DNA of 64,000 bases from an uncultured Bacilli bacterium. Lineage in GTDB: Bacteria; Bacillota_I; Bacilli_A; RF39; UBA660. Positions 10,046 to 62,312 of this stretch are shown here, piece by piece. The stretch covers positions 66,596 through 130,595 of the forward strand of contig CAKPCB010000003.1 of the NCBI GenBank assembly GCA_934141245.1, written 5' to 3'. Every line of letters begins with the position of its first letter. Positions within the stretch are counted from its first letter, which is position 1. Below the pieces are notes generated by a model. That model had not been told where the DNA came from and made no database searches. It worked only from the letters and a program-made list of their open reading frames with translations. The translations under genes and the position numbers were made by a program.

Positions 10046-10222
10046 ATGTTAAAAATTCTAAAAAAAGTAGTATTTTCATTTTTTTTACTATATGGGTTTA
10101 ATATAATTGCAACTAAATTTAATATTATAATTCCAATAAATTACTTAACTGTTGCATTGGTTTTTCTTTTAGATATACCCGGTATGGTTATGTTAACTTT
10201 TATTTCTTTGCTTATTTTATGA
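10046..10222 (+). CDS. bofA: BofA-like small membrane protein (pro-sigma-K processing inhibitor family). 58 aa, below the ORF-track cutoff.
   Basis: MLKILKKVVFSFFLLYGFNIIATKFNIIIPINYLTVALVFLLDIPGMVMLTFISLLIL resembles the BofA C-terminal block (…INLVTTAISGILGIPGIAALVVI…). It sits where B. subtilis has bofA, after recR. GGGTGA RBS. Confidence 0.5.
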   Translation: MLKILKKVVFSFFLLYGFNIIATKFNIIIPINYLTVALVFLLDIPGMVMLTFISLLIL

Positions 10223-39550: not shown

Positions 39551-40081
39551 ATGAGAAAAACATTTTTAATTTTAGCGACTATAATTATGATTTTTTTAAT
39601 TAGCAAAACAAACTATTCAGAAGAAATAATTATTCCAAATGATTCAATTAGAATAAGGGTAATCGCCAATTCTAATTCAGAATATGATCAAAAACTGAAA
39701 AAAAATGTTAAACACTCTATTCAAAAGCAGTTGTCAGAGATGTTAAAGGATGCATCTGATATTAACGAAGTAAGAGAAATATTAAAGAACAATTTAGGAA
39801 ATATTGAATATACTGTTGAAAAAGTATTTGAGAAAAACAAATATAATAATTCCTTTGAAGTTAAATATGGTTATAATTTTTTCCCTAAAAAAATATATAG
39901 GGGAATTGAATATGATGAAGGAACCTATGAATCAATTGTTATTAAAATAGGTGAATCGAAAGGAGATAATTGGTGGTGTGTATTATTTCCACCTTTATGT
40001 TTGATGGATGAAGAAGAAGAACAAATGGAAGATGTTGAGTATAAATCTTTTATAAAAGAAATTATAGATAAATATTTTTAG
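39551..40081 (+). CDS. spoIIR: Stage II sporulation protein R
   Basis: Signal peptide, …IRIRVIANSNSEYDQKLKKNV… and NWWCVLFPPLC, a SpoIIR signature. Conserved position after prmC. Confidence 0.8.
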   Translation: MRKTFLILATIIMIFLISKTNYSEEIIIPNDSIRIRVIANSNSEYDQKLKKNVKHSIQKQLSEMLKDASDINEVREILKNNLGNIEYTVEKVFEKNKYNNSFEVKYGYNFFPKKIYRGIEYDEGTYESIVIKIGESKGDNWWCVLFPPLCLMDEEEEQMEDVEYKSFIKEIIDKYF

Positions 40082-47604: not shown

Positions 47605-48354
47605 TTGATTGAGGCGATTTATATGATTAATTTTATTATATGTGATGATAATAGGGAGTTTTTAAAAAAAGAGAAAAATATTATTGATAAACTTATGATG
47701 AGATACGATATAGAATATAAGTGTATCTTATTTGATGAATATAATAAAGACTTTGAAAACATGGCCGCAAAGGATATAGGGTTTAAAATATATTTACTTG
47801 ATATTCAAACAAAAAATGGCTCTGGACTTGATGCAGCAAGATGTATAAGAGAAGAATTAGATGACTGGGTTTCAATCATTATAATAATAACTGCATTTAA
47901 TGAATTTAAATATGAGGCATTAGGTAACAGACTATACTTATTGGATTTTATTAATAAGCTAAATAAGTGTGATGAAAATCTTAAAGAAACTTTAGAAATT
48001 GCAATAAAACATTATGATAATAGAGAAAAAAGTTTAAGTTATGAATATAATCATATAATTAAAAAAATAGAATTTAGACATATTATATATATAGAAAAAG
48101 AACTTGATAGCAAAAGAAGTTTAGTAAAGACAACTTATGGAGCACATTTTATAAACAAAAATTTAAATGAAACAGAACCGCTTTTGGATAATAGATTTAT
48201 TAGAACAAGTAGAAGCATGATTGTAAACATTGATTATGTAAGTGAATTTGATATGAAAAACAATAAAATAATCTTTAAATCTGGAGATGTTTGCTATCAA
48301 GTCTCTAGAAAAAAGAAGAAGGAGTTACGGGAATATGTTAGAAACAACACTTAG
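47605..48354 (+). CDS. agrA: LytTR-family response regulator (AgrA-like)
   Basis: Receiver domain (FIICDDN…YLLDIQT) and C-terminal LytTR domain (…FIRTSRSMIVNIDYV…). Confidence 0.75.
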   Translation: MIEAIYMINFIICDDNREFLKKEKNIIDKLMMRYDIEYKCILFDEYNKDFENMAAKDIGFKIYLLDIQTKNGSGLDAARCIREELDDWVSIIIIITAFNEFKYEALGNRLYLLDFINKLNKCDENLKETLEIAIKHYDNREKSLSYEYNHIIKKIEFRHIIYIEKELDSKRSLVKTTYGAHFINKNLNETEPLLDNRFIRTSRSMIVNIDYVSEFDMKNNKIIFKSGDVCYQVSRKKKKELREYVRNNT

Positions 48355-49624
48355 AATTATAATTGCTTTCATAAACCCTATTGTTGGTTATCATATAATT
48401 AGAAATTTTGGGGGTAAAGATAAATCCGTTTCATTATCTTTTAGAGTTTTCTTAATTTTTGTTTTAGCAGTTTCAAACTTGCTGATATATAATGTATCCT
48501 ATAATTCTTTAATAACATTGATAAATTTTTTATTAACAATAATTGTTTATAAAGCTTTATTTAAAACAAGTTTATTTGAATCGATAATTTTATCCACAGT
48601 TTTGTTTATAATTTTAACACTTGCAGATGTTGTTGTTTCACTAATTTTAGTTTCGTTTGTTACTGCAGAGGAAGTTAGAAAGAATGTGTATTATATGTTA
48701 ATTGGAAATGTCTCTGTAGGATTGCTATCTTATGCATTATCATATGCTCCATTTATAAAAAATAATGTAAAAAAATTCGTTGAAAAAAGTGAAGATAATC
48801 ATAAGGTTAAAATAGTTGTCTTTTTTTTATTAACAATATTACTGGCATCAATTTTACTTTATGCAATATCAATTAACTATAAATTAATTAACGAATATAT
48901 ATTGATAGTAGTTATAATGTGCATTTTAATTGTTTTGTTTTTAATATACATAATGGAAAATAATAACAGAATGCAATTTGAAGCTAAATACCTTTCTTTG
49001 TTTGATTATTTTAAAACTTTTGAGGATATGATTGACAGTGACAGAGAATTTATGCATGAGTATAAGAACCAATTAGCAGCTATTAGAGAAATGAATAATA
49101 TAAGTTCTGTAAGAAAATATATAAATTCAATATTAGGCTATGTTGACAACTCTAAAGTAGATTATATATCTGATTTAAAATTTATACCCAAGGGTGGTGT
49201 AAAAGGGATAATATATTATAAACTAATGATTGCTAAGAATAAAAATATAAGTGTAACAATTAATGTTAATAAAAACATAAAAGAGTTAGAATTTATAGAT
49301 AGTGAAACACAAAAAAACTTAATTAAAGTTTTAGGAATTTGCTTAGATAATGCTATAGAAGCTAGTGAAGTTTCAGAAAAAAAGAATATTTCATTAGAAA
49401 TATACAAAATGTCTAATGAGATAAGAATTGTTATATGTAATACTTATAATAGTGATTTAGTTGATTTGAATAAAATTGAAAATAAAGGCTATTCTACAAA
49501 AGGTAAAGGTAGAGGTAATGGACTATATTACTTGTCAAAGGTTATAAGTTCTCAAAAAACAATTTCTACTGAATGGGTTATTATGAATGACTATTTTGTA
49601 AGAAAGATATTTATAAAAATTTAA
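48335..49624 (+). CDS. agrC: AgrC-like (HPK10) sensor histidine kinase
   Basis: Six to seven N-terminal TM helices, H-box (EYKNQLAAIREM), and a GHKL ATPase (…GRGNGLYYLSKV…). The start overlaps the 3' end of agrA. Confidence 0.7.
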   Translation: MLETTLRIIIAFINPIVGYHIIRNFGGKDKSVSLSFRVFLIFVLAVSNLLIYNVSYNSLITLINFLLTIIVYKALFKTSLFESIILSTVLFIILTLADVVVSLILVSFVTAEEVRKNVYYMLIGNVSVGLLSYALSYAPFIKNNVKKFVEKSEDNHKVKIVVFFLLTILLASILLYAISINYKLINEYILIVVIMCILIVLFLIYIMENNNRMQFEAKYLSLFDYFKTFEDMIDSDREFMHEYKNQLAAIREMNNISSVRKYINSILGYVDNSKVDYISDLKFIPKGGVKGIIYYKLMIAKNKNISVTINVNKNIKELEFIDSETQKNLIKVLGICLDNAIEASEVSEKKNISLEIYKMSNEIRIVICNTYNSDLVDLNKIENKGYSTKGKGRGNGLYYLSKVISSQKTISTEWVIMNDYFVRKIFIKI

Positions 49625-49670
49625 AAAATAAAGTCAAGGTTATTTATCTTAAATCTTGACTTTATTTTTG
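49623..49670. terminator. Bidirectional terminator between agrC (+) and agrD (-)
   Basis: AAAGTCAAG-(16 nt)-CTTGACTTT with A/T runs on both sides. Confidence 0.5.
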
Positions 49671-49677
49671 TTATAGA

Positions 49678-49797
49678 TTAGTCCATGAATTTTGGAGCTT
49701 CTGGTTCATCAATGAACAGCCACATGCATCCAACAGAAGCTGCTGTAGAAGCTAATAGTGCAACTGCTGCTAAAGCTACTGAAAATAATTTTTTCAT
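49678..49797 (-). CDS. agrD: AgrD-like autoinducing peptide precursor (39 aa, below the ORF-track cutoff)
   Basis: MKKLFSVALAAVALLASTAASVGCMWLFIDEPEAPKFMD. It has an amphipathic leader, a Cys-containing core (…GCMWLFI) and the conserved acidic AgrD tail (IDEPEAPKF, compare S. aureus …DEVEVPKEL). GGAGG RBS 6 nt upstream. Directly downstream of agrB. Confidence 0.6.
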   Translation of the reverse strand: MKKLFSVALAAVALLASTAASVGCMWLFIDEPEAPKFMD

Positions 49798-49839
49798 ATG
49801 CTACCTCCTTTACTTTTATATAAAAATGCTTTTGCATTT

Positions 49840-50430
49840 TTAACAATTTTTATAATTATTATAAGGCATCTTTAAAGCTTTATATGTTAATGGGTTTATC
49901 ATTATTGCTTCTATTATTAATGATATAAGTAAAGTGTTTGAAACAATTCTTGTATTTATTAAAAATATGGCTATTGAATATACTATGGACAAAATAACTG
50001 AAGCAATTTTTCTATATTTTCTTTTTTTTGCATTTGTCAATGGTCTTTTAATTGTATCCGCAGGTGCAAATACTAAATAATCTATTGTACAGATGATACA
50101 CAATATAATTTTAATAGTATTACTTATATAAATTTTAGAAATTAACAATGTAAGCCCAAATATAAGTAATATTGATGTTATTAGACAAATACTACTCTTA
50201 TCGGCATGTACTCCAAATGCAGGATATCTAATTATATTCAAGAAAACTAAAACTAAAATAATTTCTTTAAATATGTTAAATATAATTGATAGTACTAATA
50301 TGACAATTAATTTAGTAATTGTTAAGTATATTCCTTCTAAACCGTATCTGATTTTTTCAATATCAGTTTCATTATAGGCATTATACTTTTTTATTAAGTT
50401 AATTGAATTGTTTAAAAAAACTTCTTTCAT
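49840..50430 (-). CDS. agrB: AgrB-family AIP-processing membrane endopeptidase
   Basis: 196 aa, four to six TM helices, conserved His/Cys region (…RYPAFGVHADKSSICLITS…). AAGGGGAAAAAT RBS. Confidence 0.75.
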   Translation of the reverse strand: MKEVFLNNSINLIKKYNAYNETDIEKIRYGLEGIYLTITKLIVILVLSIIFNIFKEIILVLVFLNIIRYPAFGVHADKSSICLITSILLIFGLTLLISKIYISNTIKIILCIICTIDYLVFAPADTIKRPLTNAKKRKYRKIASVILSIVYSIAIFLINTRIVSNTLLISLIIEAIMINPLTYKALKMPYNNYKNC

Positions 50431-51640: not shown

Positions 51641-54133
51641 ATGAACTTATTAAAAAGATTATTTGATCATGAATATAAAGAATTAAAAAGATTTTCAGAA
51701 ATTGCTGATGAAATAGATGCGTTAGATGAGGAATATACAAAATTAACTGATTATGAATTACAAGCAAAGACTGACGAGTTTAGAAATAGACTTAAAAGTG
51801 GTGAAACATTGGATGATATTTTAGTTGAAGCCTTTGCAACTGCAAGGGAAGCTTGTTATAGAGTTATTGGTGAAAAACCATATTATGTGCAACTTCTTGG
51901 TGGACTTGCAATTCATTTTGGTAATATTGCAGAAATGAAAACCGGTGAAGGTAAAACATTAACATCTGTTATGCCAGCATATTTAAATGCTTTAACTGGT
52001 GATGGTGTTCATATTGTAACAGTAAATGAATATCTTGCTGATCGTGATGCAAAGTGGATGGGCAATATTCATAGATTTTTAGGACTTACTGTTGGAACAA
52101 ACTTGAGAAGTTTATCTCCAAAAGAAAAAAAAGAACAATATAATTGTGATATTTTATATACTACTAATAATGAATTAGGATTTGATTATCTAAGAGATAA
52201 TATGGTAGTAAAAAGTGAAAATAGAGTTCAAAGAGGACTTAATTTTGCTATTATAGATGAAGTTGACTCAGTTTTGATTGATGAAGCTAGAACTCCACTT
52301 ATAATTTCAGGTGGTGAGGTAAAGAGTAATAATTTATATATTGATGCAGATACTTTTGTAAAAAAATTAAAACCCGAAAAAGATTATTTATATGATGAAA
52401 AGACTAAATCAGTTACTCTTACAGAAGATGGTGTAAAAAACGCGGAAAAGAGTTTTAAGTTAGACAATTTGTATGATATATCTAATACTAATTTAGTACA
52501 TCATATAAATCAAGCATTGAAGGCTAACTATGCAATGAAGAACGATGTTGATTATGTTGTCCAAGATGGTGAAGTTGTAATTGTTGATCAATTTACAGGT
52601 CGTTTGATGAAAGGTCGTGCTTTTAGTGATGGTCTTCATCAAGCAATAGAAGCAAAAGAAGGAGTAACAATACAACAAGAAACAAAAACTTTAGCAACAA
52701 TTACTTTCCAAAATTTATTTAGAATGTATAAAAAACTTTCTGGTATGACTGGTACTGCAAAAACAGAAGAAGAAGAATTTAGAAACATTTATAATATGTT
52801 TGTTATACAGATACCTACTAATAAAGAGGTAATAAGGATTGATGAAGCCGATTTGGTTTATTCTACTCAAGCAGGAAAGTATAAAGCTTTAATTGATGAA
52901 ATAGAGAGAAGATATAATAAAGGACAACCTGTTCTTGTTGGTACAATAGCAATTGAAACCAATGAATTAATAAGCTCGATGCTTAAAAAAAGAAAAATAC
53001 CTCACGAAGTTTTAAATGCCAAAAATCATGCTCGTGAAGCTGAAATAATTGCAAAAGCTGGACAACCAAAATCTGTAACGATTGCAACAAATATGGCTGG
53101 TCGTGGTACAGATATTAAATTAACTGAAGAAGTTAAAGAAATGGGTGGTTTGTGTGTTTTAGGTACTGAAAGACATGAATCTAGACGTATTGATAATCAG
53201 TTAAGAGGACGTTCTGGACGACAAGGAGATCCTGGATTTACACAATTCTATGTATCTATGGAAGATGAGTTGATGGTTAGGTTTGGAACTGACAGAATTA
53301 AAAATATGCTTCAAAATTTAGGCTTTGCAGAAGACCAACCTATAAAAAGTAAAATGTTTACAAATGCCATAGCAACAGCACAAGCTCGTGTTGAGGGAAA
53401 TAACTTTGATATAAGAAAACAACTTCTACAATATGATGATGTTATGAATAATCAAAGAGAAATTATGTATGCTAAAAGAAATGAAATACTTGACAATGAA
53501 TCTATACATGATACAGTATTAAAATCTATAAAAGACCATATAACTGATTTTGTAGAATCTCATATTTTTCCAGAGGGTCATTTAACTGATAAAGATATAG
53601 AAGAAATTGTAGATTATGCAAACGAAAATTTGTTTAAGCAAACTTTAAATATTAAAGATGTTAAGACAAAAGATTCTAAAGAGTTAATAGAAATAATATA
53701 TAATATTGTTGTAGAAGAATATGAAGAAAAAATTAAAGATTTGCCATCTGAAGTTACAGATGAATTTGAAAAAGTAATAGTTTTAAGCATCATTGATCGT
53801 TATTGGACGGAACACATTAATACGATGTCTCATTTAAGAGAAGGTATTGGTTTAAGAGGATATGCACAAGATGATCCACTAAGAGCTTATACAATGGAAG
53901 GCTTTGATTTGTTTGATAAGATGATGCAAGGAATCGATAAAGATATAACTATACTTTTAATAAAATCTGAGATCAAGCAGAACATTGAGAGAAAAGAAGT
54001 TTCAAAAAAGCAAATAACCAACGATGGAAAGGATCATGTAAAACAAGCTCCTAAGAAAGTTCAAAAAATTGGAAGAAATGATCCGTGTCCTTGTGGCTCA
54101 GGCAAAAAGTATAAACAATGTTGTGGTAAATAA
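51641..54133 (+). CDS. secA: Preprotein translocase ATPase SecA
   Basis: 841 aa with DEAD-motor motifs (MKTGEGKTL, DEVDSVLIDEARTPLIISG) and a C-terminal Zn finger CPCGSGKKYKQCCGK. Confidence 0.95.
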   Translation: MNLLKRLFDHEYKELKRFSEIADEIDALDEEYTKLTDYELQAKTDEFRNRLKSGETLDDILVEAFATAREACYRVIGEKPYYVQLLGGLAIHFGNIAEMKTGEGKTLTSVMPAYLNALTGDGVHIVTVNEYLADRDAKWMGNIHRFLGLTVGTNLRSLSPKEKKEQYNCDILYTTNNELGFDYLRDNMVVKSENRVQRGLNFAIIDEVDSVLIDEARTPLIISGGEVKSNNLYIDADTFVKKLKPEKDYLYDEKTKSVTLTEDGVKNAEKSFKLDNLYDISNTNLVHHINQALKANYAMKNDVDYVVQDGEVVIVDQFTGRLMKGRAFSDGLHQAIEAKEGVTIQQETKTLATITFQNLFRMYKKLSGMTGTAKTEEEEFRNIYNMFVIQIPTNKEVIRIDEADLVYSTQAGKYKALIDEIERRYNKGQPVLVGTIAIETNELISSMLKKRKIPHEVLNAKNHAREAEIIAKAGQPKSVTIATNMAGRGTDIKLTEEVKEMGGLCVLGTERHESRRIDNQLRGRSGRQGDPGFTQFYVSMEDELMVRFGTDRIKNMLQNLGFAEDQPIKSKMFTNAIATAQARVEGNNFDIRKQLLQYDDVMNNQREIMYAKRNEILDNESIHDTVLKSIKDHITDFVESHIFPEGHLTDKDIEEIVDYANENLFKQTLNIKDVKTKDSKELIEIIYNIVVEEYEEKIKDLPSEVTDEFEKVIVLSIIDRYWTEHINTMSHLREGIGLRGYAQDDPLRAYTMEGFDLFDKMMQGIDKDITILLIKSEIKQNIERKEVSKKQITNDGKDHVKQAPKKVQKIGRNDPCPCGSGKKYKQCCGK

Positions 54134-54366
54134 GTTGATTTATAAGGGTTGTGCAGTAATACAGCAGTAAAAAAAGTCAAAAAGATAGACAAAAAACAGC
54201 TCAAAACGCACACTTGTGTGCAATTTGTGTGCGTAAAATAAAAAATTAATGCACACAATTGATTTAAACCTTATAAAACAAGGGATTTTTCAATGAACAC
54301 AAATTCACAATAATCAGCATTCGTGCTGATTTTTTCGTTCTCTAAAGAAATTTAGAGGAGGAAGTT

Positions 54367-54627
54367 ATGGGAAAAGTGAATGTAACAAAAGGAGGGAATT
54401 TATATCAATATAGATTTGAAATAGCTCCACAAAGGGGAGCTAGAAAATTTATTAATAAATCAGGTTTCAAGACAAAACAGGATGCTTATGTTGCTGGGAT
54501 GAAAGCATTTAATGAATATATGAATACAGGTAAAAAATTTTTTCTTAATACATGTCATAAATTGGTAATACTTAAAAATATTTTAAAATTAGCTCTCATC
54601 CACTTTCTTTATAAACAAAAAAAATAG
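54367..54627 (+). pseudogene. int: Integrase fragment: N-terminal arm-binding (AP2-like) domain only
   Basis: …GNLYQYRFEIAPQRGARKFINKSGFKTKQDAYVAGMKAFNEY… matches Tn916/phage integrase N-terminal domains. The ORF ends after 86 aa with unrelated sequence, and no catalytic domain follows. Confidence 0.5.
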
Positions 54628-54652
54628 ACACGAAATTATGTCTATTTATTTC
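54623..54652 (+). terminator. Hairpin after the integrase fragment
   Basis: AATAGACA-cgaaatta-TGTCTATT followed by a T-rich tract. Confidence 0.4.
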
Positions 54653-54804
54653 TCTCTACAATTTCTCTATAATATCATGTTAGGACATTTTTTTAGGACA
54701 GTCAACGGACAAAGTGAAATTTTTTAAATAACTGCTGTGCTGTAAAACTAAATTCCACCCTAATTTAAATAGAAGTGGAATTTAGTTTTGTAACTGAGCT
54801 TTTT

Positions 54805-55467
54805 TTACACTTTATTATTATTTAATTTTTTTAATGTAAGAAATATCAAACAAATCAAATTAAAGCAAACTATTACAATAGCTATCTTTATAAAATTATA
54901 TTTTAATTGTTCTTTTATTGATGAGTGAGTTTTTTCATTTATTTTTAAATAATAGTTTTCAAATTCATCATCACTAGTGTACATATTAGATATTTCATAA
55001 GGTAATTCTGTTCTAAAATTTAATCTAACCTTATTTTCAGATTCAAAAAATAAAATACACACTGTTTTCTCATTACTATATATAATTATCCTTCGATTTT
55101 CTAATATTAGATTAGATTGAATTTCTACTCCATTTTCCTTTAAAAATTGAACTAAATTTTCTATAGTATCATATTTAGCAAATACTGATACTTCTCCAAT
55201 AACTCGCTTACGAAAATCATTTTTATTTATTTGAATAATTGCATCATCATAAAAAGATAAATAATTATTATTTACAATTAAAGAATCCAAAAAGAAAGAA
55301 TCCAACTCAGATACTTTTATTTTATCATTATATTGATAAATTCCAATTTCTCCATTTTTGTAGTTATATTCTTTTTTTAACAAAAATATCCAACAAAAAT
55401 ATAATGTAAGAAAAATAATTATACTCAATATGATAACAACAATATATTTCTTTGAAAAGTTTAACAT
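54805..55467 (-). CDS. Hypothetical membrane protein (N- and C-terminal TM), cargo of the element remnant
   Basis: 220 aa with hydrophobic segments at both ends. No motif. Confidence 0.4.
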   Translation of the reverse strand: MLNFSKKYIVVIILSIIIFLTLYFCWIFLLKKEYNYKNGEIGIYQYNDKIKVSELDSFFLDSLIVNNNYLSFYDDAIIQINKNDFRKRVIGEVSVFAKYDTIENLVQFLKENGVEIQSNLILENRRIIIYSNEKTVCILFFESENKVRLNFRTELPYEISNMYTSDDEFENYYLKINEKTHSSIKEQLKYNFIKIAIVIVCFNLICLIFLTLKKLNNNKV

Positions 55468-55717
55468 AAAAGCTCACCACTAATATTATACTATAAAAAA
55501 TAGTCAGCAGTATATATTATTTATATACTCAAATTAATTAATCTTGGGAACGAATGGATACATTGTGTGCATTTTGTGTTCATTGAGAAGAAAACACATA
55601 GTAAAAATAGTACAAATAATACTATTTATATATAACCTTACCAGAACCATTCATCCCTTTGAAAACATATAATACAGATAGTTTTACATAGTACAAATAG
55701 TACTAGAAAAGGATGAA

Positions 55718-55761
55718 CTTGTGGAAGTGGTAAGAAATATAAGCAATGTTGTGGAAAATAG
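55718..55761 (+). repeat. Orphan duplicate of the secA 3' end, in frame coding …CGSGKKYKQCCGK* (attR-side copy)
   Basis: CTTGTGGAAGTGGTAAGAAATATAAGCAATGTTGTGGAAAATAG versus the secA terminus CTTGTGGCTCAGGCAAAAAGTATAAACAATGTTGTGGTAAATAA. Differences are mostly synonymous. A terminator hairpin follows. Confidence 0.6.
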
Positions 55762-55763
55762 CT

Positions 55764-55799
55764 CGCAAACCCTCATAAATAAAGGGATTGCGGGTTTTT
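55764..55799 (+). terminator. Probable ancestral secA terminator
   Basis: CGCAAACCCT-cataaataa-AGGGATTGCG + GGTTTTT, directly after the orphan secA tail. Confidence 0.5.
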
Positions 55800-56137
55800 C
55801 TATGATTACAATATTTAGATACTTTGAACTGTTGGCATAGTGATGGTCTAAACATAAAATGAGATAAGCTATATACTTTAAAATTTTAATGAAAAAGTGG
55901 TTAAATCATACTATAACTTCTGAATAACATACTATCAATTATATAACACTTCAAGGATTATTTAGTTATTATTACACTTATTATTATGAATTATCACATT
56001 AGATTATCATTTGTGGGTTTCTATGCTTTAGTACACTTTTAAAGCCTAAAAATACTTGCCATTAAAAACATTGTTTATATTGGCAAATGAGTTGCAATGA
56101 TAATTCATTGATTTTATAATCTACGTTAGAGGGAGGA

Positions 56138-57121
56138 ATGGAAATGTTAAAGTACATTAAAATGTTATTGCTAGTAGTAATGATTGGAGTGTTTTCATTT
56201 GCTATAAATGTATTTGCTGAGTCAAAAAATGAAGTAACACTAAATTTTAAAGGTGGAACAATTCATGATGGTTATGTGGAATATAACAAGAAAGCAAAGG
56301 TACAATTGTTTAAGGGTGATAATTTAGTTATTGATATTTCAAATAATATGGTAATTGATTTAAATGAAGCAGAGTACAAGTTTGTAATTGAAGAAATTGA
56401 AGATTCAAGTATTACTGGTGCTAATGCATCTATAAAATTAAAAATCAATAAATGGTATTATCCCATTACAACAATAAATGAAACTAAATCTACATTCAAA
56501 TTAGATTCAAGCAAATTTAATGGTAAATTAGATGTTGAATTTGAAAGAAAAAACAATGCTTTTAACTTTACAATAAAAAATATTTATAATGATATATCCT
56601 CAAAAGGTGTAATTGATTTGACTAATGGTCAAGAATATGTAATGGATTTTTCTAAAACTGATGAGTTAACAGAAGGATTAAAATCATTTGCAGATTTAGA
56701 TAAAACACTATATTATAAAAGAAGTGATGATAGTTTGTTAGTAACAGACAATGAAAGTGAAGCTGTTATAAAGATAGTAGGAAATAAATCCAAAAATAAA
56801 GCAATATTAACTGCGGTAAATGTTGGAACTAAAAAAAGCGAAAATTTTAAAGGATTTCATATGCAATATACAGGTTCTGCATTGGATTTTGATGACCCTG
56901 ATGGTGGAATTATACTTGAAACAAGATTTGATTATTATACTAGATGTAAATATGAATTTAATTTTCAATATGTAAAAGAAGTGAATAACGAAAATTTAGA
57001 TAATATTACTAACCCACAAACAGGTGACAATATTGTATTATATTTAGCAACAAGTATTTTATCAATTATTGGATTTGCTGGAACTTCGATAATTGTTTAT
57101 AGAAAAAAACAGGTCAATTAA
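56138..57121 (+). CDS. Sortase-anchored surface protein (NPQTG sorting signal)
   Basis: Signal peptide, then a C-terminal NPQTGDN + hydrophobic segment + RKKQVN. That is a cell-wall sorting signal. GGGAGG RBS. Confidence 0.65.
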   Translation: MEMLKYIKMLLLVVMIGVFSFAINVFAESKNEVTLNFKGGTIHDGYVEYNKKAKVQLFKGDNLVIDISNNMVIDLNEAEYKFVIEEIEDSSITGANASIKLKINKWYYPITTINETKSTFKLDSSKFNGKLDVEFERKNNAFNFTIKNIYNDISSKGVIDLTNGQEYVMDFSKTDELTEGLKSFADLDKTLYYKRSDDSLLVTDNESEAVIKIVGNKSKNKAILTAVNVGTKKSENFKGFHMQYTGSALDFDDPDGGIILETRFDYYTRCKYEFNFQYVKEVNNENLDNITNPQTGDNIVLYLATSILSIIGFAGTSIIVYRKKQVN

Positions 57122-57256
57122 AATATTAAGTAAATATTTGCTTAAGTAAGGAAGTCTTGAAGAAAATGTCTAAAAGCTTTACATAGGTTCATATGATATA
57201 ATAGTAACAAAGGACGGACGTGGATGATATCCATAGCAGAGAATTATATATTACAT

Positions 57257-57297
57257 AAAAAGGAAACTGATATTTATTTGTATTAGTTTCCTTTTTG
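57257..57297. terminator. Bidirectional terminator between the surface-protein gene (+) and the sigma-factor gene (-)
   Basis: AAAAAGGAAACT-(16 nt)-AGTTTCCTTTTT. Confidence 0.5.
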
Positions 57298-57329
57298 CCT
57301 TCTTATCAAGATAAAATCAGGTCCAAATA

Positions 57330-58166
57330 TTATTGTTTTATTTTTATTTTTGTAGGTCCTTTTATCTCTTGCTCTTTGTCTACAATTTCATATTCAAAAG
57401 TCATATCATCGTTATTTGCTGATAAAAAAGAATCTACTTGTGTATAACATATATATTGATTATTATTGCTTCTTATTGGTGTGTTTTTTTGGGATCTTAG
57501 TTCTATAATACCATTTTTCTTCAATTCCTGGCCTATTCTTTTTACAATTTTTGCAATTAATCTTGAAACATATGATCTAGAAATAGACATCATATTAGCT
57601 ATTTCTTCTTGTGTATGAACTTCATTATTATAAAATCCAAAACGGAGTATAATTATTTCTTTATCTCGATTTGGCAATTTTTTTATAATTTCTTGTATAC
57701 TCTTATAAGTAATTTTTTTTTCATAATCTTCGATTATATTGCTTGTATCACTAATTATATCTTCAATTTTTAATTCTCTACCTTCTTTATCATGTTTAAT
57801 TTGCTTATTTAGACTATCAACATTTTGATCTTTTTTAATTTTTCTTAAAAACATTAATATTTCATTATCAATGCATCTTGCAGTATAAGCAGAAAATTCA
57901 ACTTTTCTTGATTTATCAAAGGTTGTTATTGCTTTAATTAAACCAATATTACCGATTGAAACTAAATCTTTTTTATCATATTCAACATACTTAAATCTGG
58001 TAGTTACTTCATATAAAACTAATCTAATATTATGCTCTGCTATTATTTTTTTAGCTTCTTCATCACCTTGTTTCACTTTGTCTAAAAGTTCATATGTTTG
58101 AGATTTAGATAAAGGCTTTGGTAACTGGTTAGCATCTATGAATAGTTCATCAGTATTCATAATCAT
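57330..58166 (-). CDS. Sporulation-type sigma-70 family sigma factor (SigE/SigK-like) with a C-terminal extension
   Basis: Region 2 (…LPKPLSKSQ…AEHNIRLV…SIGNIGLIKAITTF…YTARCIDNEILMFLRK) and region 4 (ISRSYVSRL). HDKEG block. About 45 residues extend beyond region 4.2. No hydrophobic pro-sequence is evident. Confidence 0.7.
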   Translation of the reverse strand: MIMNTDELFIDANQLPKPLSKSQTYELLDKVKQGDEEAKKIIAEHNIRLVLYEVTTRFKYVEYDKKDLVSIGNIGLIKAITTFDKSRKVEFSAYTARCIDNEILMFLRKIKKDQNVDSLNKQIKHDKEGRELKIEDIISDTSNIIEDYEKKITYKSIQEIIKKLPNRDKEIIILRFGFYNNEVHTQEEIANMMSISRSYVSRLIAKIVKRIGQELKKNGIIELRSQKNTPIRSNNNQYICYTQVDSFLSANNDDMTFEYEIVDKEQEIKGPTKIKIKQ

Positions 58167-58447
58167 CCTCGATTTCTTAAAACGTGATACTTTAAAACTT
58201 CTTTATCATCGTATATAATATCATATTTTTATTATCTGTCAATAAATGCTTAGCATATTATTTGCTTCTTAAAACTATAATGTAGTTTATGCGAAAATAT
58301 TGTAATACTTGTAATATGATATGCACTATGTGTATTAAATAGTCTTATATATTGCAATAATTAGGAAATATATAGTTATTTTGATTTTATTGTTTTGATA
58401 TAATGTGATATAATTACAGTAAATAGAATGAATAATAGGAGAAAAAT

Positions 58448-60670
58448 ATGGAAGCCAATAAATATTATAAATATATTGATTTTATGAGACTATTATCATG
58501 TATTTCAGTATTACTATATCATTTAGGATTATTAAATGGTGGATATCTTGCCGTTTGTATCTTTTTTGTTCTGAGTGGATACCTATCATGCGTTTCTGCA
58601 TTTAAGAAAGAAAAGTTTTCTATTTTTTCTTATTATTATAATAAATTGTTAAGGATATATGTTCCTGTTGTTATTTTTGCATTTATTACGGTAGCAATTA
58701 TTTCACTTTTTCCAAGTATTAATTGGTTTAATTTAAAACCGGAAGTAAGATCTGTCATATTTGGATACAATAACTTTTGGCAATTAAATACCAATCTTGA
58801 TTATTTTGCTAGGCACTCAACTTCACCATTTATTCATTTATGGTATATTTCAATTTTGTTACAGTTTGAATTAGTATTTCCATTTTTATATATAATTTTA
58901 CATAAATTAGGAAATAAATTTAATAAATTAGTACCATGTATCATTTCTACAACTATCTCAATTGCTGCATGCTTATATTTTTTTGTATCATGTACGAAGA
59001 CAAACATAATGACAATTTATTATGGAACATTCTTTAGAAGTTTCTCATTTCTATTTGGTATTTCATTTGGCTTTATTAACTCATATTATGGAAGTGTAAT
59101 ATCCAAAAAAATAAATAATAAAATAATCAATAAATTACTATTAATAGTTTGTATAGCACTTTCACTATATTTACTTGTTTTTATCAAATTTGATTCAAGG
59201 TATTTTTCTTTAGCAATGATTATTATTACAATAATTACTTGTGTATTGATTGATTATAGCATCAGTAATTGTAATGATAAGTTATCATTTTTTGATAAAA
59301 CTGTAAAACAATTATCTTCTATAAGTTATGAAATTTACTTGTTTCAATATCCTATAATATTCTTATTTCAATATATAAATATTAATTATACAATGAAAAT
59401 TGTACTAATACTCATTTTAACAATTGTCGTATCATATATATTTAATTTTTGTCTTAACAACAAAAACAAAAAAATTAAAAGTATTCAGTATTTATGCTTA
59501 ACAATTATACTACTAGTGGCATCATTTGGTGTATATAAGTATATTATTTCAAAAGACCATACTAAAGAAATGCAGCTTTTGGAAAAGCAACTTGCAGAAA
59601 ATGAAAAAATGATTGATAAAAACAATGAAAAGTATTTAGAGTTAATTAAACAAGAAGAAATGGATTGGAATAAAGTTCTAGATGAATATGAAAAGGGAGA
59701 AGCTAAGTTAGGGGAAATTGTTAATAAATTACCCATAGTTGGAATTGGCGATTCTGTTATGTTAGGTGCTGTACAAACTTTGCACTCACGTTTTCCAAAT
59801 GGATATTTTGACGCTAAAGTTTCTAGAACGGATTGGGAAGCCAATCCAATACTAAAAGATTTGATAAATAAAAGTATATTAGGAGATCCTATTATAATTG
59901 GACTAGGTACTAATGGTGGATGTACAAATTCATGCAAAACAGAAATAATGAAAACATGTGGCAAACGTAAAGTTTTTTGGATAAATACTACTAATTATGA
60001 TTATATAAATAATGATTTAAATGTACTTTCAAAAAAATATGAAAATTTACATGTAATAGATTGGAAAAGTGCATCTTCAGGACATAAAGAGTACTTTGTT
60101 TCTGATGGTATACATTTGACTTCTTCTGGTAGAAGGGCATACACAGATACTATTTATAATTCAATATATCAGGTTTACTTAAGTGAATATAATAAAAAAA
60201 AGCAAGAAGCTTTACAAGAACATGAGAATAGACTAAAAAATAAGATAACTTTTTATGGGAATCAAGTATTACTTAATGCATTTAACTATATACAAGAGGA
60301 ATTTCAAGATTCAAAATTTATTGTGGATAAAAAGCTTGATTATAAAAGAATAAAATTAGAAATTACTAAGTCTATTGATAATAAATCATTAACTAATAAA
60401 ATTATTTTCGTTGTTGATTCGACAATTGGTATTACATTGAATGAATATAAGGAACTATTTGGTCTTTGTGATGTTTGTGAATTATACATATTATCAACGG
60501 ATAAGAGTATTAGTGAAGAACTAGAAAAATTAGGTATAAAGAATATAAAAGTATTGAAATTCTACGAGGAAATATGGAAAAATAAAAATTATCTTTCTAG
60601 TGATGGAATTCGTCTTTCTAAAGAAGGCAATAAAGCATTATCTACTTTTATAAAAGAAAAAATTCAATAA
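58448..60670 (+). CDS. OatA-like acyltransferase-3/SGNH O-acetyltransferase with an extra C-terminal SGNH-like module
   Basis: N-terminal 10-11 TM acyltransferase_3 domain. SGNH blocks (GDSVMLG, GTNG, DGIHLT). An additional ~170 aa with a degenerate second set (FVVDSTIG…SDGIRLS). Confidence 0.75.
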   Translation: MEANKYYKYIDFMRLLSCISVLLYHLGLLNGGYLAVCIFFVLSGYLSCVSAFKKEKFSIFSYYYNKLLRIYVPVVIFAFITVAIISLFPSINWFNLKPEVRSVIFGYNNFWQLNTNLDYFARHSTSPFIHLWYISILLQFELVFPFLYIILHKLGNKFNKLVPCIISTTISIAACLYFFVSCTKTNIMTIYYGTFFRSFSFLFGISFGFINSYYGSVISKKINNKIINKLLLIVCIALSLYLLVFIKFDSRYFSLAMIIITIITCVLIDYSISNCNDKLSFFDKTVKQLSSISYEIYLFQYPIIFLFQYININYTMKIVLILILTIVVSYIFNFCLNNKNKKIKSIQYLCLTIILLVASFGVYKYIISKDHTKEMQLLEKQLAENEKMIDKNNEKYLELIKQEEMDWNKVLDEYEKGEAKLGEIVNKLPIVGIGDSVMLGAVQTLHSRFPNGYFDAKVSRTDWEANPILKDLINKSILGDPIIIGLGTNGGCTNSCKTEIMKTCGKRKVFWINTTNYDYINNDLNVLSKKYENLHVIDWKSASSGHKEYFVSDGIHLTSSGRRAYTDTIYNSIYQVYLSEYNKKKQEALQEHENRLKNKITFYGNQVLLNAFNYIQEEFQDSKFIVDKKLDYKRIKLEITKSIDNKSLTNKIIFVVDSTIGITLNEYKELFGLCDVCELYILSTDKSISEELEKLGIKNIKVLKFYEEIWKNKNYLSSDGIRLSKEGNKALSTFIKEKIQ

Positions 60671-60675
60671 ATTAA

Positions 60676-60708
60676 ATGAAAATGCCTACAAAAGATTTGT
60701 AAGCATTT
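60676..60708 (+). terminator. Terminator after the oatA-like gene
   Basis: AATGCCTACAAA-agat-TTGTAAGCATT followed by a T-rich tract. Confidence 0.45.
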
Positions 60709-60845
60709 TTATATATTATACATTTTAATTATTATATTTATATAGTCTAATCAAACTTGATATTTGATAAACTTTCATCACCGACAATTACAAATCCTTT
60801 TGACTATATTAATTAACTATTTATTTAAATTGTGTTATAATACTT

Positions 60846-60875
60846 TTGACAGTTAATTAAAAAAATGTCTATAAT
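60846..60875 (+). promoter_or_regulatory. Consensus-like sigma-A promoter for cysS (TTGACA -18 nt- TATAAT)
   Basis: Read directly. No T-box leader is present here. Confidence 0.4.
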
Positions 60876-60917
60876 GAATTTATAATAAATAAAATATTAA
60901 TAAGAGGATGGTGTCTA

Positions 60918-62312
60918 ATGAAATTATATAATACATTATCAAAAAAAATTGAAACATTTACTCCTAATGAAGAGGGAATTGTTAAAATGTATACATGTGG
61001 ACCAACCGTATATAATTATGCACATATAGGTAACTTGAGAACCTACATTTTTGAGGATATATTAGAAAAAGGTCTTAACTATTTAGGATATGATGTTATG
61101 CGTGTTATGAATATAACTGATGTTGGACATATGACTAGTGATAGCGATTCTGGTGAAGATAAGATGGAAAAAGGTGCTCTAAGAGAAGGAAAAACAGTAT
61201 ATGAAATAGCCGATTTCTATACAAAGGCTTTCTTTGAAGATTTTTCTAAATTGAACATTAATAAACCTGCTATAGTAGAAAATGCTAGTAAACATATTGA
61301 TAAATACATTGAAATGATTCAAAAAATGCTGGATGATGGATATGCATATATATCTGAAGGAAACGTATATTTCGATATTTCGAAAGCTAAGGATTATTAT
61401 AAACTTTCAGGCAAAAATCCAGATGATTTAAAGGTTGGAGTTAGAGAAACTGTTGAAGAAGACAAAGCTAAAAGAAATCCTGGTGATTTTGGTTTATGGT
61501 TTACGGTTTCTAAGTTTGCTAATCAAGACATGAAATGGGACTCTCCTTGGGGAGTTGGATACCCTGGATGGCATATTGAATGCTCTGGAATATCAGCAGA
61601 ATATTTAGGAGAGTACTTAGATATACATTGTGGTGGTGTAGATAATATTTTTCCACATCATACTAATGAAATAGCTCAAAGCGAAGCTTATTTTGGACAT
61701 AAATGGTGTAACTACTGGTTACATGGAGAACATTTAAATAATAAAGATGGTAAAATGAGCAAATCAAAAGGAGAATTTTTAACAGTCTCATTACTTGAAG
61801 AAAAAGGATATTCTCCCCTTGCATATAGATTCTTTTGTTTAAATAGTCATTATAGAAATCAATTAATATTTTCATATGAGGCATTAGATGGTGCAGAACA
61901 AGCCTATCAAAAATTAAAAAATAAAATTAAAGGTTTAGACAAAACACCAAATCTTCATGAAAGTAAGATAGATTTTTATCAAAATAAATTTAAAGATGCA
62001 ATTTCTAATGATTTAAATACGGCTTCTATGCTTACTGTTTTGTATGATTTACTTAAAGATGATGAACTAACAGACTTTACTAAACTATATTTAGTTAATG
62101 ATTTTGATAAAGTATTATCATTAGGACTTATTGATGAAGAAAAAACGGTGGATAGCGAATTTGAAAAATATATATTAGAGAAAATTGAAGAAAGAAATAA
62201 AGCAAAAAAAGAAAAAGATTATGCAAAAGCAGATGAAATTAGAAATGAATTGTTAGAAAAGAAAGTTCGTTTGATTGATTCTAGGGAAGGAACTACATAC
62301 GAAATAATATAG
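60918..62312 (+). CDS. cysS: Cysteinyl-tRNA synthetase
   Basis: HIGN (YNYAHIGNLR), KMSKS (GKMSKSKGE) and Zn-binding Cys/His residues. Confidence 0.9.
   Translation: MKLYNTLSKKIETFTPNEEGIVKMYTCGPTVYNYAHIGNLRTYIFEDILEKGLNYLGYDVMRVMNITDVGHMTSDSDSGEDKMEKGALREGKTVYEIADFYTKAFFEDFSKLNINKPAIVENASKHIDKYIEMIQKMLDDGYAYISEGNVYFDISKAKDYYKLSGKNPDDLKVGVRETVEEDKAKRNPGDFGLWFTVSKFANQDMKWDSPWGVGYPGWHIECSGISAEYLGEYLDIHCGGVDNIFPHHTNEIAQSEAYFGHKWCNYWLHGEHLNNKDGKMSKSKGEFLTVSLLEEKGYSPLAYRFFCLNSHYRNQLIFSYEALDGAEQAYQKLKNKIKGLDKTPNLHESKIDFYQNKFKDAISNDLNTASMLTVLYDLLKDDELTDFTKLYLVNDFDKVLSLGLIDEEKTVDSEFEKYILEKIEERNKAKKEKDYAKADEIRNELLEKKVRLIDSREGTTYEII

Follow-up and report, generated by a model that had tools for sequence, protein, structure and literature searches.

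What is a sigma factor of the sigma-E/sigma-K type, made without a pro-sequence, doing in a genome that also encodes regulators of pro-sigma processing? By the textbook account, mother-cell expression is coupled to signals from the forespore at one checkpoint, the proteolytic activation of pro-sigma-E and pro-sigma-K; SpoIIR triggers the cleavage of pro-sigma-E by SpoIIGA, and BofA restrains the cleavage of pro-sigma-K by SpoIVFB. In the present study, we analysed a minus-strand gene in a 64-kb stretch of contig CAKPCB010000003.1 from an uncultured Bacilli bacterium (the window, which means the whole stretch of DNA that was analysed). A preliminary description had taken its product for a sporulation sigma factor of the SigE/SigK type which lacks a pro-sequence, carries a C-terminal extension of about 45 residues and lies in an accessory patch, and had seen a tension with a BofA-like gene in the same stretch. 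We consider another answer to be probable, namely that the product (hereafter the window sigma) is neither sigma-E nor sigma-K but belongs to a third lineage related to both, is born mature, is additional to the two sporulation factors and replaces neither, and is a truncated member of its own family.

The product of the gene is an intact alternative sigma factor, composed of a sigma-2 domain, a short sigma-3 and a sigma-4 domain (Table 1). The list of open reading frames (ORFs) begins the gene at 58166, and we have favoured the second ATG (M3) at 58160, from which the product begins MNTDELF. Because of the spacing of the GAGGA sequence, and because all homologs begin at the corresponding methionine, this is almost certainly the real start. 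The reading frame is uninterrupted, and no skin element splits the gene. AlphaFold2 modelled sigma-2 and sigma-4 with a predicted local distance difference test score (pLDDT) of 82-97, and in a Foldseek search a family relative matched the holoenzyme structures of sigma-S, sigma-A and sigma-32. With regions 2 and 4 both present and predicted to be folded, the protein can be placed in group 3 of the sigma-70 family. The signatures on which the preliminary description relied were recovered, ARCIDNEILM at residues 94-103 within region 2.4 and the recognition helix ISRSYVSR at residues 194-201 within region 4, and together with the Pfam matches they bear out a sigma-E/K type by sequence. The lack of a pro-sequence was borne out as well. 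LPKPLS is preceded by 12 residues when counted from 58160, not by the roughly 15 first given, and this short N-terminus is non-hydrophobic as described, with no hydrophobic pro-leader. The window sigma begins where processed sigma-E begins (profile positions 22-35 of the SigK/SigE models), and its alignment to the SigE model starts at profile position 27-34. A protein 100% identical over 276 aa (P0001) is present in public databases on at least 12 contigs, and a further 28 variants with 96-99% identity have lengths of 272-278 aa. Between the window gene and one diverged strain (L109), the core has 4 non-synonymous and 7 synonymous changes, which corresponds to a ratio of non-synonymous to synonymous rates (dN/dS) of 0.13, the counts in this comparison being small and the direction clear; therefore, the gene is functional and its core is under purifying selection.

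The classification was examined with four curated NCBIfam models, and the window sigma remained below the cut-off of each. It obtained 203.2 bits (cut-off 252) and 190.6 bits (cut-off 298.65) on the SigK models NF004471 and TIGR02846, and 187.7 bits (cut-off 339) and 178.2 bits (cut-off 348.6) on the SigE models NF006158 and TIGR02835, with no preference between the models. The same failing and preference-free pattern was given by long and short relatives of its family. As controls, seven canonical sigma-E-like genes from metagenome-assembled genomes (MAGs) of uncultured 'Bacilli', 'Tenericutes' and 'Firmicutes', and two sigma-K-like genes, were taken from among the matches listed in a scan of genome-collection contigs, where the best match to the window sigma among those listed had 42% identity. 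The canonical SigE controls have a short hydrophobic/basic leader of 20-25 residues before FFIGS..LPxPL. Three sigma-E-like controls were scored and reached 318-325 bits on SigE, about 60 bits above their own SigK score, and one scored sigma-K-like MAG control reached 310.9 and 308.4 bits on the SigK models, about 70 above SigE. The sigma-E-like control loci (L005-L010 and L020) include a closed genome of 1.54 Mb (OZ007038.1). The three scored sigma-E-like controls lie just under the SigE cut-off of 339, and automated annotation may therefore miss such genes.

In addition, a neighbour-joining tree with 100 bootstraps was calculated from a small reference set, consisting of annotated SigE, SigK and SigG (Bacillus, Pusillibacter and Monoglobus), the MAG controls and 53 family representatives. 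The SigE clade was recovered in 92/100 replicates, the SigK clade in 89/100 and the joint SigE+SigK clade in 77/100. The window sigma fell within the SigE or the SigK clade in 7/100, so that the phylogeny with SigE, SigK and SigG references which the preliminary description had proposed left it outside both in 93/100.

The family to which the window sigma does belong was collected by an exhaustive HMMER search against 1.84 billion cluster representatives, of which 537 (50% identity clusters) matched at E<=1e-30. Among the top 150, the alignment starts at the first residue in nearly every case, and LPxPL stands at position 12-13 in most of them; thus, the top family representatives are pro-less. 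Members have ~205 to 637 aa and were defined by the start M-x(2-4)-[ED]-[LI]-F-I-x(3-4)-LPxPL, with LPxPL at residue 12-13, and by the motifs EYDKKDLVSIGN and RCIDNEILMFLRK; in the alignments, the window sigma has the N-terminal pattern and both motifs. A literature search found no description of the pro-less family or of the region-4 repeat extensions treated below, and this sigma-E/K-like family of uncultured gut bacteria is apparently undescribed so far. Since the window sigma fails the four curated models, lies outside both clades and belongs to a separate pro-less family, its identification as a sporulation sigma-E or sigma-K is probably to be given up.

The BofA-like gene of the preliminary description proved to be a true match to its family, and SpoIIR is also encoded in the window (Table 1). 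As both are genuine, ordinary pro-sigma-E and pro-sigma-K genes would be expected elsewhere in the genome, outside the window. If the window sigma is not sigma-E or sigma-K, and if BofA and SpoIIR serve those canonical genes, the tension that had been seen between a pro-less sigma and BofA most likely dissolves. No other sigma-E/K paralog and no other sigma gene was found within the 64-kb window.

About 60% of the family representatives carry additional C-terminal modules, here called X and Y, which are not universal in the family. The consensus of X is KLQTIYEYFxxYTxEQVDxMLxKLTEEExxLIxLRYGxDLxNP...KFYGxLIPKMKRLL and that of Y is TKEDxxKxLELLRTPxFxxMMxxLSxKExxIISLKLGYxDGKYFSTxSIAxFLGIExxEVIxxTKKVLLxYKExIN, and the arrangements seen are XY, X alone, Y alone and repeats with as many as five copies. 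No curated family covers X or Y. A profile of stand-alone X-Y proteins matched region 4 (4.1-4.2) of solved Thermus SigA structures with an E value of 5e-5, and 26/30 stand-alone X-Y proteins matched RpoD_Cterm weakly; by these comparisons, both modules are derivatives of sigma region 4. For a 483-aa member, AlphaFold2 modelled X (residues 243-307) and Y (379-464) with confidence as helical domains (pLDDT 80-95), kept apart by a disordered linker. All matches in a fold search with this long-form model were sigma factors, and none was specific to either module. The stand-alone X-Y proteins have 190-300 aa and their own methionine 3-5 residues before LQTIYEYF, and the fused genes have an in-frame ATG with a purine-rich stretch at the X boundary.

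In the family, little separates the fused from the split forms of these genes. In L087 (8700-8870) the sigma gene ends TAATAG and a truncated X ORF begins 20 nt later, and the fused 481-aa relative P0037 differs from it by a small indel of about one base in the A-run ACCAAAAAAATAACC; the fused and split states are thus a minimal change apart, and the switch at this run could be phase-variable. Short forms arise from long or bicistronic forms, since the short form P0055 still has the long-form linker and its terminal LKKDK, and L087 retains an X stump. A 950-aa RpoD-like sigma factor (regions 1.2, 2, 3 and 4) in L096 (9280-12132, plus strand) continues into four X and one Y and is encoded directly downstream of a 383-aa family sigma, so the region-4 modules are not confined to sigma-E/K-like sigmas. 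Furthermore, an ORF upstream of the sigma gene in L105 (frame -0, amino acid offset 321) combines X, a helix-turn-helix-like segment and a calcineurin-type metallophosphoesterase (DLHFGN...GDHD...HGHSH); therefore, X is a mobile module which also enters non-sigma proteins.

The C-terminal extension of the window sigma is real and non-canonical, and it is longer than the 45 residues first assigned: homology to region 4.2 ends near residue 218-222, which leaves a tail of about 55 aa. In the AlphaFold2 model, residues 225-276 are without secondary structure, at a pLDDT of about 30. The preliminary description had allowed for a frameshift or annotation artefact at this place. The frame is open in 29/29 near-identical variants from independent assemblies (272-278 aa), and the tail is therefore no frameshift, assembly or annotation artefact. 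It is thus kept throughout the species, as far as the 29 variants extend, and it has no similarity at E below 0.1 to any of about 240 family proteins. Among the species variants, the divergence per site is 0.092 in the tail versus 0.013 in the core (7x), and 43% versus 8% of the sites are variable. In the comparison with L109, the tail has 7 non-synonymous and 3 synonymous changes (dN/dS = 0.52), so that it is under relaxed constraint and yet not plainly neutral. Within the tail, the 21-residue patch NNQYICYTQVDSFLSANNDDM is near-invariant, its only change being A248T in 2/29 variants. We also considered the tail as a decayed X domain, on a MAFFT placement and a profile score of 34.6 bits, and rejected this as circular, since the profile had included the window protein. 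When the window protein was left out and the profile made from 46 true X domains, the tail scored 0.0 bits, below many of 2000 shuffles. No X or Y remnant was found downstream of the sigma gene in any frame, and no stand-alone X-Y ORF in the 64-kb window. The window copy is thus without X and Y and is left with a species-specific tail that is predicted to be disordered.

A sigma-A-type promoter candidate precedes the gene (Table 1), the homologs in L102 and L103 have a near-identical sequence and layout (TTGACA-16-TGaTATCAT), and expression of the window sigma may well be driven by sigma-A. Between this promoter and the Shine-Dalgarno sequence, 2-6 nt 5' of the latter, a 21-nt leader motif with the consensus AAGTATCATACTTTGAGAAAT was found in seven family loci (window, L087, L091, L098, L100, L103 and L104); its window form, AAGTATCACGTTTTAAGAAAT, occurs once in the window. 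The motif is palindromic or hairpin-capable, with an 8-bp hairpin in which 84% of the cells are paired. RNAalifold favours a weak pairing of the leader with the Shine-Dalgarno sequence (-1.8 kcal/mol), and covariation of the hairpin was not significant with the 7 sequences. Rfam gave no match for the motif and no credible match in 54000-61000. We have treated it as a putative conserved regulatory element. Its CATAC core resembles a -10 element of the sigma-E/K type, but it is not claimed here as the -10 of an autoregulated promoter, since inspection by eye revealed no conserved -35 at a fixed distance. Since a terminator lies between the two convergent genes, the sigma gene is monocistronic.

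From these observations, the following mode of action is proposed. Members of the lineage are translated in mature form, with about 12 residues before LPxPLS, at the point where processed sigma-E and sigma-K begin. Since there is no pro-sequence for SpoIIGA or SpoIVFB to remove, cleavage would not gate the activity, which would have to be set at another level. The window sigma would bind core polymerase without proteolytic activation, and its activity would be set by the housekeeping-type promoter, the leader element and/or a partner that acts on the patch conserved within the tail. As the gene is monocistronic and has a near-consensus sigma-A promoter and a leader, control is most likely transcriptional, at the leader or via a partner. 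Regions 2.4 and 4.2 are near those of sigma-E and sigma-K, and the holoenzyme should therefore read sigma-E/K-like promoters with a CATA-type -10. The window sigma has the sigma-K-like R196 where most relatives have the sigma-E-like Q, a position of region 4.2 which we take from B. subtilis genetics to be tied to -35 specificity. The X and Y modules would have been lost from the window copy, with the disordered tail of about 55 aa and its one 21-residue patch remaining. Variable surface-protein genes stand beside the sigma gene in several loci and are regulon candidates only.

It may also be, and we offer this tentatively, that the window gene is a stripped-down member of an undescribed sigma system of uncultured AT-rich spore-forming gut Bacilli, in which a born-mature offshoot of sigma-E/K has X-Y, made of duplicated region-4 domains, as its dedicated partner. 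X-Y occurs in three arrangements, namely in a gene directly after that of the sigma, as a fusion with the sigma, and behind an RpoD-like sigma. As a mimic of region 4 it could be a competitor at the beta-flap or at -35 DNA and so act as a built-in anti-sigma factor or decoy, or alternatively it could supply a second DNA-reading head. The 21-residue patch of the tail would then be the site that is left for a trans-supplied partner to dock. If true, this would be a mode of sigma control without characterised precedent.

Several observations weigh against the explanation of the window sigma as a truncated, born-mature third-lineage factor. The whole family was recovered as one clade in only 17/100 bootstraps of the neighbour-joining tree, and a few long-branch members land near the SigE+SigK clade, so that the third lineage could be a grade; because these few members wander, the family is regarded as a separate lineage or grade and not as a proven clade. 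The conserved patch suggests that the tail may be more than a remnant. The canonical spoIIGA-sigE and sigK-spoIVFB genes are deduced from SpoIIR and BofA, and were not observed in the 64-kb window. Matches to the sigma-A consensus are common in DNA of 25% G+C, with 71 found versus 63 expected. Moreover, the analysis yielded neither a target promoter of the window sigma nor an anti-sigma factor or an inducing condition for it.

Among the alternatives, the one which survives best, at a chance that we regard as rather small, makes the window sigma a horizontally acquired regulatory factor of an integrative element or island, which activates island genes such as those of the adjoining surface proteins. 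The neighbourhood agrees with this in part. As the preliminary description had reported, the gene is convergent with a sortase-substrate gene and close to an integrative-element remnant, and its neighbours, the acyltransferase_3 and NPQTG-protein genes, give neither a spoIIGA-sigE-sigG nor a spoIVCB setting. From secA to the sigma gene the DNA is strain-variable, an integration hot spot which carries surface proteins, of the sortase type here and of the Flg_new type in L109. An integrase or its remnant lies near the sigma gene in 4 of about 11 contexts (window, L087/L088, L091 and L107/L108), and a module of integrase, TPR protein (334 aa), TPR/R3H protein (852 aa) and sigma recurs in L087 and L091, the TPR pair being found also in L098. 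Across species, the position of the sigma gene differs almost every time: it is found between rhomboid and ireB, after pheST, after trpS, after der, behind the TPR pair in three loci, or beside an integrase stump in L107. On the other hand, several relatives stand between housekeeping genes with no integrase, and the sigma gene shows no drop in G+C content relative to its flanks, the value staying near 25% all along. The phage and plasmid collections held nothing above 43% identity to the window sigma, and the family-specific DNA pattern had no match in 2.9 million viral contigs; on these two results, a phage or plasmid origin was rejected. In the diverged strain L109, the order sigma-acyltransferase_3-cysS is kept and the exchange is limited to the cargo towards secA. 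Within the species, the gene therefore holds a fixed place, bordering on a variable hot spot. Thus, of the accessory patch first proposed, the strain-variable DNA with its integrase remnant stands, and it adjoins a gene which does not itself belong to the exchanged cargo.

Less probable still, and in our view improbable, is that the gene is the organism's own sigma-K or sigma-E minus its pro-sequence, as in Clostridioides difficile, with BofA left over or used for another purpose. A mature-length sigma-K has a precedent: a sigK made mature is of the C. difficile type only (10.1101/2022.02.25.481979; PMC3789829), and among 76 spore-formers surveyed sigK was present in 76/76 and SpoIVFB in all but one (10.1101/2022.02.25.481979). 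The top NCBIfam match of the window sigma is a SigK subfamily model, its ISRSYVSR helix is that of sigma-K, and no second sigma-E/K paralog shares the window. Against this, its scores are 50-110 bits under the SigK cut-offs with SigE nearly equal, whereas a divergent SigK-like MAG protein passes the same cut-offs, and it stays outside the SigK clade in 93/100 bootstraps. The family has hundreds of diverse members in variable contexts with region-4 repeat extensions, and late sporulation genes are found in genomes in which relatives occur. Both SpoIIR and BofA are intact, BofA points to a separate pro-sigma-K, and the promoter candidate is of the sigma-A type and not of the sigma-E/SpoIIID type. 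Least probable of all is a decaying long-form sigma which has lost its C-terminal modules and is heading to a pseudogene: the homolog-free, disordered tail evolving 7x faster than the core and the truncations of long forms visible in relatives would fit it, but the core dN/dS, the full frame in all 29 variants, the intact sigma regions with high model confidence, the promoter candidate, Shine-Dalgarno sequence and terminator in place, and the absence of an extension from ~40% of family representatives, which makes the modules dispensable, all speak against it.

The features of the locus and of the sporulation genes which bear on it are collected in Table 1.

Table 1. Positions of the features of the window treated in this study
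Feature	Position	Strand	Evidence or remark
BofA	10046..10222	+	PF07441, 36.3 bits, cut-off 26.1; between recR and holB as in Bacillus subtilis
SpoIIR	39551..40081	+	PF09551, 137.6 bits
Strain-variable segment, secA to sigma	54134..57329	.	Replaced by other genes in L109
Integrase remnant, 86-aa, Arm-DNA-binding	54367-54627	+	Within the strain-variable segment
220-aa membrane protein	54805-55467	-	
Sortase substrate: signal peptide, C-terminal NPQTG, hydrophobic stretch, RKK	56138-57121	+	Convergent with sigma gene
Hairpin terminator, 18-pair stem	57256..57297	.	Common to the convergent sigma and NPQTG-protein genes
Sigma factor coding sequence, 276 aa + stop	57330..58160	-	Pfam, NCBIfam, homolog starts
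C-terminal tail, residues ~222-276	57333..57497	-	pLDDT ~30, no homologs, relaxed constraint
Near-invariant 21-residue tail core NNQYICYTQVDSFLSANNDDM, residues 233-253	57402..57464	-	Unchanged in 27/29 variants
Sigma region 4, residues 161-211	57528..57680	-	Pfam PF04545 (Sigma70_r4), 43.8 bits; pLDDT 82-92
Sigma region 2, residues 44-110	57831..58031	-	Pfam PF04542 (Sigma70_r2), 45.4 bits; pLDDT above 90
Shine-Dalgarno GAGGA	58166..58170	-	Sequence; 5 nt 5' of ATG 58160
Conserved leader motif AAGTATCACGTTTTAAGAAAT	58172..58192	-	Directly 5' of Shine-Dalgarno; family consensus AAGTATCATACTTTGAGAAAT
Sigma-A-type promoter candidate TTGACA-16 nt-TG-a-TATTAT	58215..58242	-	11/12 matches and extended -10

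The window is origin-proximal and has a Bacillus-like gene order, with gyrBA, dnaX-ybaB-recR-bofA-holB, pth-mfd, yabG-veg-spoVG-yabP and dnaB, followed by prfA-prmC-spoIIR-mntP, gerQ, an agr-like locus, secA, the variable patch and cysS; just past its end, as seen in L001/L002, are sigH, whiA and clpP. Its sporulation genes are those of SpoIIR, BofA, YabG, SpoVG, YabP and GerQ, and uncultured Bacilli orders with both sporulating and non-sporulating members have been described (PMC10868615). The named proteins closest to the RecR of the window come from 'Bacilli bacterium' MAGs at NCBI, with 68-78% identity. At the BofA locus, the public gene calls on the same contig leave a gap (L085 6053-6284), and since the Pfam match starts at profile position 21, the true start may be upstream of 10046. 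The agr-like quorum-sensing locus (47605-50430) consists of a LytTR regulator (47605-48354, plus strand), a HATPase_c_5 histidine kinase (48287-49624, plus strand) and agrB (49840-50430, minus strand) with a 39-aa ORF just downstream of it (~49678-49797, minus strand). The acyltransferase gene (58448-60670, plus strand) encodes 740 aa in an OatA-like layout, in which an Acyltransferase_3 domain at the N-terminus is followed by a long C-terminal part; it is divergent from the sigma gene across a common intergenic region of 281 bp, and the pairing is kept in L109. The cargo of L109 (6829-12026) comprises a Bro-N protein, a 424-aa protein and the 494-aa Flg_new surface protein. The TPR gene pair of the relatives, with the 852-aa protein giving a faint AbiEi_4 match, has the orientation of the sigma gene and directly precedes it in three species (L087 4259-7815, L091 4218-7792 and L098 4388-7944), is itself preceded by a tyrosine integrase in 2/3 loci (L087 and L091), and is absent from the window.

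In this family, the window gene is a modest, truncated member, and the region-4 repeat partners of its relatives are the interesting part. Pro-less relatives of sigma-E and sigma-K coexist with SpoIIR and BofA in at least the window genome, which raises the question of how cells prevent the untimely firing of sporulation promoters by a sigma-E/K-like holoenzyme, and of what such sigmas control. The fused, split and stand-alone region-4 repeats offer a testable handle on a possible new kind of sigma regulation or extension. For annotation, the names sigE and sigK should be avoided for such genes, which should not be taken to speak for or against sporulation capacity in MAGs.

In comparison with known systems, the window sigma has in common with sigma-E (SigE/SpoIIGB), which acts early in the mother cell of sporulating Bacillota, the sigma-70 group-3 architecture and the region 2.4 motif RCI(D/E)NEILM; Bacillus SigE is about 38-39% identical to it, and most family members share the sigma-E-like helix ISQSYVSR. 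It differs from SigE, which has a pro-sequence of 27-29 residues and adjoins spoIIGA/sigG, in having neither this leader nor this context and in its sigma-A-type promoter candidate, and the family is set apart by a C-terminal tail (window) or modules (relatives). With sigma-K, the late sigma of the mother cell, it shares the ISRSYVSR helix, and a SigK model is its best-scoring curated match (203 bits), whereas the window gene has no skin element and its family comprises hundreds of diverse members with extra domains. The C. difficile sigma-K is the exception to the pro-sequence rule, a mature-length sigma of the sigma-K type which works without cleavage. The sporulation-like sigmas of phages and plasmids, such as the SigF/G-like factors of Bacillus phages, are likewise extra genes outside the canonical operons, and phrog_351 (PHROG 351) matches the window sigma at 149 bits; in contrast to these, the window gene has a stable position within the species, and the best match among phage and plasmid sigmas has at most 43% identity. 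Finally, ECF41, ECF42, ECF56 (SnoaL-like/TPR extensions) and SigI likewise have an accessory domain fused behind sigma-4. Those are, however, of the ECF or SigI type with unrelated extension folds, whereas here the sigma is of group 3 and sigma-E/K-like, the extensions of the relatives are repeats of sigma region 4 itself, and the window copy bears only a disordered tail.

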